A stretch of 57,082 nucleotides of DNA from an uncultured Candidatus Saccharibacteria bacterium. GTDB lineage: Bacteria; Patescibacteriota; Minisyncoccia; UBA6257; GWB1-50-10. The stretch spans positions 1-57,082 of the forward strand of contig CAYISE010000001.1 in the NCBI GenBank assembly GCA_964366055.1. The letters are read 5' to 3'. Below the pieces are notes generated by a model. That model made no database searches. It saw nothing but the letters and a program-made list of their open reading frames with translations, and was not told the origin of the DNA. Positions 37,946-54,555 of the stretch are shown piece by piece (the first letter of the stretch is position 1; each line of letters opens with the position of its first letter). Position numbers and translations under genes: made by a program.

Positions 37946-38638
37946 TTATTCTAATGTCGCGTCGCTGATATAATCCAAATCAAAATCTTTTAACCAATCA
38001 ATCAATGATTTTTTATATTCTAACGGCTCGCCTATTAATTCTGTAAGAAAATTCTTATTAATAATCGATGGAAAATTTTTAATACCTAAATAATCCGGCA
38101 AACTTGACCAATGATAAGTTTCTAAAAATTTCATTACCTTTTTATAATCTTTAATTTCTCTTTCTCGCCATTTTGGCTCATATAAATCTAACGGATTAAG
38201 GTGGATATAATAAGGAAGGTGGAGTAAATGCTGGTCAGATTTAATCGGAACAGCTTTGAATCTCCCTTGAAAAAGTACTCCGGCTCGTTCATTTTTATTA
38301 TTAAAATAATTGGCATATCCTGTCCCTAATTTTTTCATAAAATTTTGTACGCCATTATCTTGTTTTTGTCTAATTAAAAGATGAAAATGGTTGGGAATTA
38401 AAGAAAAGGATAAAATATCAACAATACATTTTCTATTGGGCCGATCTTTACGATTCCCGGCATCGTAAGATTGAAATTGGCGATAATAAATATTAGAAGC
38501 AGGGGCTTCGTCATTAAATTCGTATAAATCATGAATAAACCTGAAATAATCTTCGTCATCCAAAAAAATATCACGCCGGTCTACTCCCCTATTTAAAATA
38601 TGATAAATCCCTCCGTTAATAAATTTTTCTTTTCTCAT
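37946..38638 (-). mobile_element. HUH/Y1 transposase, IS200-like/REP-associated tyrosine transposase (RAYT)-like
   Basis: 230 aa. IYHILNRG..., the HUH motif NHFHLLI, the catalytic-Tyr region LPYYIHLNP and GRFK. The gene looks clearly more AT-rich by eye than its neighbours and is bracketed by identical hairpins. Confidence 0.8.
38448..38468. repeat. REP-like hairpin copy inside the transposase CDS (inverted orientation)
   Basis: TTACGATTCCCGGCATCGTAA is the exact reverse complement of the flanking 21-mer. It encodes ..SYDAGNRKD.. within the protein. Confidence 0.85.
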
Positions 38639-38752: not shown

Positions 38753-39689
38753 TCAGCGGCCGAGGAGTGAATTAATCTTTGCTCGCGTCTTGGGGCCAAG
38801 AGTGCCATAACCGACAACGCCGGGAGAGGCTATCCCATATTTCTCCTGGAATTTGCCCAGCGCTTTTTTGGTTAAGCCGCCAAAGTAGCCGGTGACCAAT
38901 CCTTCCGGATAAACCCCTTCGTTCTTCAACAGATTTTGAAGAGCCGTCACATCGCCTCCCTTTGACCCGAGAGAAAGGGGCTTGGTATAGGAGCCCGAAG
39001 ATGGAACAGCGGCGGATGGCGCGACCGAAGGGGTCGCAACTTTCTTGGACACTTGGAGAACAGCCAGATTTTCCATCAAAACCTTCAGATTGGCCTGAAT
39101 TTCAGCAACGGTTTTAGGTTGAGCGTAAGGCAGGGCCTTTGAGACGGCTGATGTAGCCGGGACGGCTGGCGTAGCCGGAACCGCCGGAGTTACAGTCGGA
39201 ACGGCTGGCGTAGCTGGCACAGCGGGAGTAACAACTGACACCCCACCCCCCCCACACCCGCCCCGAAACACCACCACCGCCGCCTCCTCCTCCTCCACCA
39301 CCACCACCCGAAACCGGATTAGTACAGGTATCGCTCGTAGGAGTGAGCGTAAGCGTCTCGGTTCCGGTTGAAGTCAGAGTTACTTCCGAATTTCCGCTAG
39401 AGCACGTAAACGTGCCCAAATTGTTGCCCAACATTTTCCTGTCCAGAGACCTGACCGTTATTGCGGACCCGCTCAACATATTAAAGCTCACCGAATCGCT
39501 CGCTACGGAAAAACTTGAAACACTCCCGCCCACCACGGTCAAATTAATGTTCAGTGAATCAATATGAATAAGAGCGTTCTCCGAAAAAACTATATCGTTG
39601 AATGCTGCCAAGGCCGAAAGAGGAGCGCTAAAAACCAGCGCCAAAGCAAGAAGGAAAACCGCCAATGGATAAATTATTTTGTTTTGCAT
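38753..39689 (-). pseudogene. secreted surface protein with C-terminal coiled-coil + PG_binding_1 module, split by a 1-nt frameshift beside a G8 tract
   Basis: ORF 39114-39749 has a signal peptide from the ATG at 39689 (MQNKIIYPLAVFLLALALVFSAPLSALA), a beta-rich domain and a poly-Gly run. ORF 38753-39307 has (TPAVPA)n, a helix, and LSLGSKGGDVTALQNLLKNEGVY...GYFGGLTKKALGKFQ. The two overlap in different frames. Removing one G from the run at 39246-39253 joins them into a 311-aa protein. Confidence 0.7.
39246..39253. repeat. homopolymer C8 (G8 on the coding strand) at the frameshift site
   Basis: Read directly: ...gaca cccc a cccccccc acacccgcccc... It is preceded on the coding strand by a 39-nt (GGN)13 tract encoding poly-Gly. 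Confidence 0.9.
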
Positions 39690-39783
39690 TATCTTGATTG
39701 AATTAACCCCAAAGACAGCGGAGCGGCCGACCTTTCCAAATAAACTCACGCAGTGCTCGCTGTTTTTAAGGCATTCCTTCTTA

Positions 39784-41024: not shown

Positions 41025-44000
41025 CTAGTAGCCCGTATTGATCGTTCCGAGTGACGGCTTGCCATCTATGAAGAGGGCTTGCGCGATACCGGTAAGATCC
41101 GTCGGGGTGATGGTGCTCTCATACGGGTCTGAATCGTAACCCAGCTGGGAGTTATCGGCCTGATAGAGCAACAATCCGAGACGATTGACCGAGAAGTTCC
41201 AGTGAACTCCGCCCACCGATGTCTCGTGATTCTTGATAGTCAGGTAACGATAACCGCCGTTGCCGGTGATCTGACGATTCGCCGCCGTTGACGTTGAAAT
41301 ATCAAACGTCACCACGCCGCCGGAGACCGCCACATAGCCAGCAGACAGCATTTGAGCGGAATCGCTCTGTGAGCCGTCCTGCGCGGAAATGTACAGGTCG
41401 TAGGTGCTGGTTGAGGCGCCCGATTCGTTGAACGCGAAGGCCGTTGAGGTGCTCAAACGAATGGTCTTGGAACCGCTGTTCGTAATCTTGAAGATTCCAA
41501 GAGTGTTGTTCGCGCCGCAAGAGGCCGCCGCGGTTGAACCGCAAGTGGTAACTGCTCCGGCCGCAGGCGTTACGCCTGCGACAACCACCGGTTGGGAGGT
41601 TACGACAAAGTTGCCCGCCGAGGCCGGCACGCCTGTCTTCGTCGCCGCAGTAGAGCCGGTATTGGAACCCTTGACCGCAATGTCCACCGTGGTGGATGTC
41701 ATCACGAATCTGAAGAGGTCGCCAAGCCGGGCACTGCCGCCCGCGCCGATATCACCCTTCACGTAGATAGTCGTTCCGGAGACCGGCACTGGCGCTGAAA
41801 GGAGATTGTCGGAAGCGGTCACCGTGTAGGTGCAAGAGGTGGAAGAAGCCACCGTACCCACGTTCTGACAAGTCGGTTCAGCCGTCGCAAAGGCCGTTCC
41901 GCTGTTGTTCTCGTAGAATTTCACATTCTGAATCGTCGTCGTGGACAACTTGTTTATGGAAGATGTCGCATAGACGGTCAAGCTCGTGATTTTCTGTGTC
42001 TCATACTGCGAGGCCAACTGGAAGGCGAAGAAGGTCTGGTTGGTTGAACCCACAGCAACGGTCGTCGTCGTATTCGGAGAGCCAGCGGCGTCCGAAAGGA
42101 CGAGCCGTCCAGCCGCCACGTGCGTCTGGGCCTGACCGGAACCGGCAAACGTAATGTCGGAACCGTTCGTCAGGGTATTACCCCTCGTCACGCCCGTCGC
42201 CGTTATAGCCGAGGTGGAAGTCGCCACTTTGAATGTGTGCGCGTTCGTCCCGGAAGACGCATCTGCTTTCAAATGCAAAGTGACTTGAGTGGTCTTCGTT
42301 ACGATAAACGGAGAAGAGAAGTCAAAGGAAACCGTCGCGGCATTGGACGCCGTTGAAGCGGTCGTCGTCAGCGGCGATGTTTCGCTGTCCTTGTAGAGGT
42401 ACAAATTCTGGACCTCCGTCAGGTTCGCGCCGTCGGAAGTAACGACAATCTTTGAGACCTTTACATCCTCGCCGCCGGTTGAGGCGTCAAGTTTGATGGT
42501 GGAGTACTCGTACTGGGTCGTTCCCGCCACGATGCTGTTTGCCACCGGAGTGGAGAGCGTCGTTACGGTCAGAGCCGCGGCTTTTACGGAAATTGAATTC
42601 GCATCAGTCGCGCTCGTCGGATTAGAGACGAGGTCGTTCGTGGTCAAGCGCTTGGCGCTCGTGACCTGGAACGATTTCACCTGATAGGTGCTTACTGCCG
42701 TCGCGGTGGAGTTGATGGAACCCTCAATCGTGATGAAACTATTCACGCCCGAGGTAAGCACCGGGTAGGACGAGAGCGTGTACTCCGTCGCCGTGTCTAC
42801 CGAGATGCCGGAAGCGGCCGTTGAATAAACGATCGCGCCGTTCACTTTTACGTAAACCGTGCCAGTCAGCACTTTTGCGGCAGAGTTCGTGCTCGTCGCA
42901 ACGTAGAATTTAACCGCCCGGAGTTCGTAATTCTCACCAATCGGCTTCACCGTGTATTTAGCAAGGGAAACATTAGTGGAACCCGGAACCACGGCGGAAC
43001 TCGGCGAATCCGAGGCCTTAATCTGGGTCAAGGAACCCGAACCGATGGTCTGGATGTTGAAGCCATTACCAATCGGGAAGGTGGTGTCGTTCGTGCCGAC
43101 GCCCGGAATGACCGATACGGCCGTGCCGGAACCGCGGAGGTCAAGGTCATAGTTGTTGTAAACCACGTAGTTGATCGTCCGGGCCGCGCCGTCCACGATT
43201 TTCGCCTTGACGGTAAAGTCCTTCGTCTGACCCTTATCAATGAAGAACGGGGTCGCGAGATTGAAGGTCACATACTTGCCAACTTGCTGGGCCGTCGCGA
43301 GAACCGCCCCGGTCTGATCCAGTAATTGAACATCTTTAACATCCGCATCCGCACCACTCCCATTGTTGTAGATCATTATGGAGTAGAGATTCACCGCCTC
43401 GTTAGAGGAGGTTTCAGTAATGCGGAATTTGGTGATTTCCTGCATGCTCACGGCATCAACGTTCAAGGTGGAAGAACCCGTGCCCGTCAACACGTCTAAG
43501 GTGGTGGAGGCCAGAGAGGTTCCGCCGTTCACGATGGTCATCAAATTGCCGGCAATCGGGAAGGAGCCCGAGATCGCGGTCGTGTCTCCGGTAATCGCCG
43601 AAGCGGATTCAATGCTGAAACCGACATTGCCGTTCAAGTTTCCGGAGAGGAGGTTAAACCTGACCGTGAAACTGGTGGACATACCCGCGGACACCGTAAT
43701 CGGCGCGCTCGGGAAGGTGATACCGATGGTATTGTCGGAATTGATGGAGGTGACGACATTTCCATGTCGCACGCCCGCCGCGTCAATAACGTCAACGCCA
43801 TTCAAATTGGTGTTCGCCACGAAGCCGGTCTTTTTCAAGGTGATTCCGGTAACGCTCACCGCTTTGGAGCCGGCGGTCAGATTAACTTTCAACGCGGAGT
43901 TGAAAGCCGTGCCGCTGCCGATGGTTCTTACTGTCGGCGTGTCCGACGCCAAACTCACGACGAGGTCGCTCCCGGAGGGAACAACCACGACGGGGCCTGT

Positions 44001-53904: not shown

Positions 53905-54555
53905 ATGGGCGGTCTTTTAGACAATCTGGGCGCTCTCGTTTTGCAGTACCCGGCGTGGAGCCATTGGATTATCGCGGCGGGCATCCTCATTCAGGGCGAG
54001 CTGGCTATTTTGGTCTCCGTCTTTTTAATCGCGAATAACAGTTTAAGCTGGGGGGGGTTTATCGTTCCGGCGCTCTCGGCGGCGATTATCGGCGATATCC
54101 TTCTCTATTTTCTCGGCCGCGTTTTAAGAAATACCAGATTCGGCTGGAAATTATACAAAAAAATCAAACACAACCGCCGCGCCCAATTATATTTTTTCTA
54201 CGTGCGGGAAAATGTGAATAAACTCCTTATCGCCTCAAAATTTCTCCTCGGCACGAACATTCTGGCGGTATTCGCCATCAGCTGGTCCAAGGTGAAATTC
54301 AGCAAATTCTTGAAATCCAAGTTCATCGGTTTGCTCCTCTGGTTTTTCCCCATGACCGCCATCGCCTATTTCTTCGCCTCCGGTTTAACCTACCTGCGCT
54401 CCGAAAAAATTTTCCACCAGATGGAAATAGGCGTCGCTATTGTCGTGGTTTTAATCTTCGGCGGAGAATATCTTTTGAGGAGAATAATAAACAAATCTTT
54501 CGGTCTGAAAAGTAAGGCCGAAGAAATCGGCGACGCTCTTAAGGAAAAATTATAA
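53905..54555 (+). CDS. DedA/VTT-domain membrane protein
   Basis: 216 aa. IIAAGILIQGELAILVS...IGDILLYFLGR resembles the DedA-family core. Confidence 0.65.
   Translation: MGGLLDNLGALVLQYPAWSHWIIAAGILIQGELAILVSVFLIANNSLSWGGFIVPALSAAIIGDILLYFLGRVLRNTRFGWKLYKKIKHNRRAQLYFFYVRENVNKLLIASKFLLGTNILAVFAISWSKVKFSKFLKSKFIGLLLWFFPMTAIAYFFASGLTYLRSEKIFHQMEIGVAIVVVLIFGGEYLLRRIINKSFGLKSKAEEIGDALKEKL

Follow-up and report, generated by a model that had tools for sequence, protein, structure and literature searches.

The division of a surface protein gene over two reading frames in the analysed window (the whole stretch of 57,082 nucleotides) is probably a local artefact of assembly or sequencing. In this assembly, 22 untemplated G-rich bases at the 3' end of a (GGN) tract make the gene look split, and the locus encodes one ordinary secreted protein of about 304 aa, which a PG_binding_1 domain would tether to peptidoglycan. 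Among the three options that the original prediction had offered (phase variation, pseudogene or assembly error), assembly error is now favoured, while a slipped-strand switch at the G8 run is unsupported, as the intact allele that was found lacks the whole 22-nt segment instead of carrying G7.

All features of the locus, including both ORFs, the (GGN) tract and the G8 run, are located on the minus strand (Table 1), and the original prediction had placed the G8 run, the (GGN)13 tract and the two overlapping ORFs correctly. According to the ORF list, the N-terminal and the C-terminal ORF overlap in different frames. The start at ATG 39689 is consistent with the MQNKI... N-termini of the orthologs, and the assignment of the signal peptide is a reading of the sequence. 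The N-terminal beta domain was modelled by AF2 with block-mean pLDDT values of about 50-74, and its cysteines C96 and C122 are invariant across five homologs; the domain shares 69-71% identity with the orthologs P0001 and G004. A Pfam search with the N-terminal ORF gave no match, and Foldseek with the AF2 model of the N-domain gave weak beta-sandwich matches only. For the second ORF, the PG_binding_1 domain named in the original prediction was confirmed as PF01471 with 43.2 bits compared to a gathering cut-off of 23. Foldseek placed the N-terminal domain of SleB at the top for this domain (target-normalised TM-score of 0.85), followed by the PG-binding domains of phiKZ gp144 and CtpB. In the AF2 model of the intact protein, of modest confidence with a mean pLDDT of 59, a beta domain of nine strands is joined through a disordered spacer to a helix and a C-terminal three-helix domain like solved PG-binding domains. 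SleB, CtpB and phage endolysins such as phiKZ gp144 thus share the PF01471 wall-binding module and its predicted fold with the protein described here; however, they carry the module on a hydrolase or protease, whereas here it is joined to a small non-enzymatic beta domain via poly-Gly and a Pro/Ala/Thr/Val linker. Upstream of the ATG, a stretch of about 60 nt is conserved between species as well as the coding region is (window 39690-39760, L003:4229-4279, L005:5836-5904), and this stretch is a possible promoter or leader element.

Table 1. Features of the split gene, with positions in the window.
Feature	Position	Strand	Basis and remarks
Entire gene, predicted secreted peptidoglycan-anchored surface protein, split over two frames in this assembly	38753-39689	minus	ORFs and intact version in L011
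N-terminal ORF	39114-39689	minus	191 aa from ATG 39689, 211 aa from GTG 39749
C-terminal ORF	38753-39307	minus	184 aa, +1 frame relative to the N-terminal ORF
Putative signal peptide MQNKIIYPLAVFLLALALVFSAPLSALA, followed by A	39603-39689	minus	hydrophobic helix, then AxA motif; AF2 helix at residues 6-20
N-terminal beta-rich domain, about 98 aa, two invariant Cys	39309-39602	minus	AF2: 9 strands
Poly-glycine tract (GGN)13	39270-39308	minus	GGT x4, GGA x4, GGC x2, GGT x3; (GGN)15 in sister L011
Extra G-rich segment GTTTCGGGGCGGGTGTGGGGGG, 22 nt	39248-39269	minus	absent from L011; placement ambiguous by 1 nt
G8 homopolymer, context GTGTGGGGGGGGTGGGGTG	39246-39253	minus	last 6 Gs of the extra segment and GG of the next GGT codon
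Pro/Ala/Thr/Val linker VVTPAVPATPAVPTVTPAVPATPAVPATSAV..., downstream frame	39116-39238	minus	AF2 disordered, pLDDT below 50
Predicted amphipathic helix KTVAEIQANLKVLMENLAVLQVSKK	39041-39115	minus	AF2 helix, residues 187-206 of the intact protein
PG_binding_1 domain, putative wall anchor	38798-38959	minus	PF01471, E = 4.5e-11

Removal of one G from the G8 run restores an ORF of 311 aa, as originally predicted. Since both frames are open from 39117 to 39373, any change of -1 or +2 in this region fuses the two ORFs, and therefore the position of the lesion cannot be narrowed down to the homopolymer from the sequence alone. A second allele was provided by a contig that had been assembled independently from groundwater of the Hainich well H43 (L011/L012; contig Hain_H43_01um_R1_6561, ENA ERZ1292629, coverage of about 4), which was retrieved by exact look-up of the neighbouring Y1-transposase protein. 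Over 4338 aligned nucleotides, L011 differs from the window by three mismatches (clustered T>G) and one gap of 22 nt. In L011 the gene is a single ORF of 304 aa from ATG or 324 aa from GTG (protein ...NPVSGGGGGGGGGGGGGGGVSVVTPAVPATP...), in which (GGN)15 runs directly into GTG TCA GTT. At the nucleotide level L011 reads ...GGCGGCGGTGGTGGT directly followed by GGTGGGGTGTCAGTT..., and it is between these two parts that the window carries GTTTCGGGGCGGGTGTGGGGGG (39248-39269). There is no doubt that the intact allele exists, since a clean (GGN)15 in frame is nothing that an assembly with a coverage of 4 could make up.

The lesion is, judged from this alignment, an insertion of 22 nt (21 + 1) and not a one-base slip in a standing tract. 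At the insertion point, homopolymers of the intact allele do not exceed G4. The homopolymer itself is part of the lesion, because the segment supplies six of the eight Gs and the intact allele lacks the segment. With a natural intact allele of this kind, and with no homopolymer at this position in any ortholog, the assumption that the G8 run is an ancestral slipped-strand switch point is not supported.

Two further contigs belong to the same population. L093 (H43_R2, coverage of 2) shows 0 differences from the window over about 3.96 kb when its divergent transposase-copy end is set aside, and L094 (H43_R1, coverage of 4) shows four substitutions and no indels over 6.4 kb. Look-ups with other neighbouring genes returned H43_R1 and H43_R2 contigs only, among which L011/L012 alone spans the site. 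The metagenome scan and the protein searches returned more distant relatives only, and no further near-identical allele. Exact look-ups of the 211-, 191- and 184-aa products and of the 339-aa and 1148-aa neighbours found the split allele in no other assembly, which is weak evidence. The divergent end of L093 (L093:1-280, compared to window 38460-38638) holds the 5' end of the Y1 transposase gene in a diverged form, with 19 mismatches in about 170 nt, followed by identity; this pattern suggests that the transposase exists in several copies and that the contig end is chimeric or recombinant.

The extra segment consists of 15 Gs in 22 nt (68%), and its length is neither a multiple of 3 nor a change of ±1 base. 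A search with the 14-mers of the segment and its junctions gave no second occurrence in the genome and none in the loci compared, and in a local alignment to 320 nt of the flanks on either strand, 229 of 500 shuffles scored as high. An origin as a duplication or templated copy was rejected on these two grounds. By eye, the last 17 nt of the segment match the true tract preceding GGTGGGGTG at 12 of 17 positions, which is not significant, and four of the five mismatches are a change to G; in addition, the tract begins with the same bases as the first 8 nt of the segment (GTTTCGGG). These resemblances are suggestive of a garbled partial copy; in sequence this rich in G, they are statistically no different from chance. 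Had the insertion been real and recent, a clean tandem duplication or a whole number of 3-nt units would normally be expected, and the segment is neither.

The Hainich libraries were sequenced on a NextSeq 500 (2x150) and were assembled and scaffolded per sample with metaSPAdes 3.13 (PMC8672522). T>G and A>C changes are an artefact class of two-colour Illumina chemistry, which was demonstrated on the NovaSeq 6000 (PMC13218037). From its near-identity to the sister contigs, we infer that the window originates from the same project and platform. Where the sister contigs and the window disagree, it is mostly by T>G or A>C in the contigs of low coverage. Three T>G changes fall within 7 nt in the 339-aa gene of L011, two differences lie just before a scaffold join, and two others affect a conserved protease-motif region in which the window shows the canonical residue. 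This region comprises TDAAINPGNSGGPL and GEVIGIN motifs, which we take to be of the HtrA type. Compared to window 42191-42196, which is contiguous and in frame, L012:515-555 contains 35 nt of unrelated sequence and N10 inside the gene for the 1148-aa surface protein. As a scaffold-join artefact in the public assembly, it shows that these scaffolds do take up spurious bases where tips are joined. The assembly of the window itself contains Illumina adapter remnants (AGATCGGAAGAGCACACGTCTGAACTCCAGTCAC..., GCTCTTCCGATCT) at the contig ends C8 (3'), C18 (5') and C20 (3') as well as two gaps of 100 N. A poly-C at the start of C6 was considered as dark-cycle junk and dropped, since at least part of it falls into a repeated leader that precedes reverse-transcriptase genes.

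The comparison with relatives, as proposed in the original prediction, showed that the gene is intact and not split, both in the near-identical L011 and in the orthologs. Single ORFs of the same architecture were found in L011, G004/L007, P0001/L003/L004, L031, L054 and L027 with lengths of 304-382 aa, which bears out the assumption that the two ORFs are halves of one gene. P0001, a protein of 319 aa with PG_binding_1, was found with the N-terminal half at 69% identity; two Hainich groundwater assemblies encode it, and its gene follows directly after that of a 339-aa Gly/Thr-rich secreted protein, the same order as in the window. G004, which belongs to the same genus, carries a single ORF of 313 aa with 71% identity and the same gene order (locus L007). 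The more distant full-length relatives L031, L054 and L027 also have a signal peptide and the two invariant cysteines, and they combine a Gly/Ser-rich tract and a Pro/Thr/Ala linker with one or two copies of PG_binding_1. Dozens of PG_binding_1 proteins of about 300 aa, several with the NCBI label Patescibacteria, came out of a region-restricted protein search. The poly-Gly tract differs in length among the orthologs (G11, G13, G15), and no homopolymer was present at the G8 position in L011, G004/L007, P0001/L003, L031, L054 or L027.

P0002 (locus L005) was considered as a second case of a frameshift in the Gly tract, and was rejected as biological variation due to a contig riddled with frameshifts, one of them right after the start codon. 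This contig (ENA ERZ1286166 contig_1136) is a near-copy of the locus of the G004 species with single-base indels throughout, in which most genes are called as fragments, and proteins derived from it such as P0002 are unreliable. Differences were also observed in the arrangement of domains. In the window and in L011 the linker is followed by the helix and PG_binding_1, in the same-genus orthologs by PG_binding_1 and a C-terminal coiled coil. Compared to L003/L007, the N-domain is about 70% identical, and the C-half (window 38753-39240) shows 66% nucleotide identity in the PG domain only. The differing domain order and the diverged C-half suggest module shuffling in the surface protein.

Based on these comparisons, an error in reading or joining the tract would best account for the split gene. 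The (GGN)15 would be the type of G-rich low-complexity sequence in which two-colour chemistry, where G is the dark channel, may miscall towards G, and a de Bruijn assembler or scaffolder could connect contig tips there via read ends full of errors. On this view, the G8 run would have arisen along with the garbled segment and would be no genetic switch, and the reads of the window's own sample would be expected not to support the 22 bases. Several observations point in this direction. An independent assembly of the same population lacks the lesion and carries the intact sister allele, matched over 4338 nt, and an untemplated insertion of 22 nt would be odd as the only real change between otherwise near-identical organisms. 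The composition of the segment, the lack of a template and its location in the most G-rich tract of the gene would fit an error, as would the conservation of the gene as a single ORF in the orthologs and the lack of another case in the genome. The documented error modes of the data argue for it as well.

Other observations argue against an artefact. At every other discordant site the window looks more accurate than the sister contigs, and a contig of 57 kb implies a decent coverage, at which a random erroneous path should lose. An assembler also needs some read support for what it builds. Other G-rich tracts, namely the (GGN)18 on C10 and the G8 at 54050-54057, are in frame, and the segment holds T and C bases in a definite order, so that it is not simply poly-G. 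As in errors known from short-read metagenome assemblies, the lesion occurs in one assembly only and in a low-complexity G-rich tract, and similar artefacts are present in the sister data; unlike in such errors, there are no Ns at this site and the rest of the window's assembly looks accurate.

The same accuracy of the window, together with the in-frame state of the other G-rich tracts, speaks for the main alternative, which we regard as possible but clearly the less likely reading, namely a real disrupting indel fixed in one strain. It would consist of a complex insertion of 22 nt in a G-rich, potentially G-quadruplex-forming tract, in the strain dominant in the sample of the window. Low-complexity G-rich tracts are mutation hot spots, and the variable length of the poly-Gly tract among the orthologs is in line with this. 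The product would be a secreted N-domain that is cut short, continues out of frame for about 51 aa and lacks the wall anchor, while the C-terminal half without a signal peptide would be useless if translated alone. However, the insert is untemplated and would be the sole real difference between near-identical genomes. The gene is intact in every relative examined, with the error-ridden contig L005 as the only exception, and the split products are on record in no other assembly, which argues weakly in the same direction. If the insertion were real, it would mean a strain-level loss of the wall anchor only and would be of modest interest unless heterogeneity in tract length were also seen.

The question of a genetic switch was extended to the whole genome (572 kb, 48.6% GC), in which G/C homopolymers of 7 or more and A/T homopolymers of 9 or more were changed by ±1 base. 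Only one of 23 long homopolymers, the one at 39246-39253, merges two ORFs on such a change. With regard to similar homopolymers in other genes, to which the original prediction had drawn attention, no other long homopolymer in the genome splits a gene. G/C runs of 8 or more are not enriched, with seven observed compared to about ten expected from base composition by our own estimate. The other G8 (54050-54057) lies in an intact ORF, the (GGN)18 tract on C10 is in frame inside an intact 835-aa surface protein, and three of the seven G/C runs of 8 or more belong to non-coding leaders of reverse-transcriptase genes. The genome shows no sign of a contingency-locus repertoire. A genome-wide screen for overlapping-frame pairs was too noisy to use.

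The leaders mentioned above belong to three paralogous reverse-transcriptase-like genes of about 320 aa (C6:1-60, C9:1860-1930, C13:40-110), of which the copy on C6 matches RVT_1 with E = 5.6e-22. In each of them, a partly conserved leader contains a homopolymer of G10-G11 (in gene orientation), about 40-50 nt before the start. The element, with which the contigs C6 and C13 begin, could be the non-coding region of a DGR- or retron-like retroelement.

Phase variation by slippage in the G8 run, superimposed on a real insertion, is very unlikely. In this scenario G7 would give the ON state, an anchored protein with seven extra residues (VSGRVWG), and G8 the OFF state, which is truncated and unanchored. 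Poly-G/C contingency loci are known from genes for surface proteins and surface modification in Campylobacter jejuni, Neisseria and Haemophilus, and the present locus resembles them in its in-gene G8, the predicted surface exposure of the protein and the frame shift by a change of one base, since G7 yields the 311-aa ORF. In addition, the 22 nt can be read as 21 + 1. Unlike at these loci, the tract is present neither in the sister nor in the orthologs, and the only other allele (L011), which is also the sole intact allele seen, has no such tract and differs by 22 nt instead of whole repeat units. Neither several loci enriched in surface genes nor any other gene interrupted by a homopolymer was found, and G/C runs are not enriched. 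Furthermore, two events would be needed, an insertion of 21 nt and a subsequent slip, where one suffices. A variant, in which a recent real insertion created the G8 de novo in the spacer and slippage now toggles between an anchored and a shed form, is equally improbable; such a newborn contingency locus would, to our knowledge, be the first described in CPR/Patescibacteria.

Least probable of all, to the point of being nearly negligible, is the production of the full-length protein by recoding on the G8 run, either through a programmed +1 ribosomal frameshift or through slippage in transcription: the downstream frame is indeed the +1 frame, and homopolymers can support slippage of RNA polymerase, a mechanism by which frameshifted genes of reduced genomes are known to be rescued, but the site is conserved in no relative, the sister allele is in frame without it, and all orthologs examined from clean assemblies are single in-frame ORFs.

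Returning to the favoured reading of a local artefact, the locus illustrates that a homopolymer frameshift in a surface gene of a MAG can mimic phase variation, and that one comparison with a sister contig was enough to expose the anomaly of 22 bases. Pending a check of the reads, the gene should be annotated neither as two genes nor as a pseudogene, but as one surface protein of about 304 aa that binds peptidoglycan.
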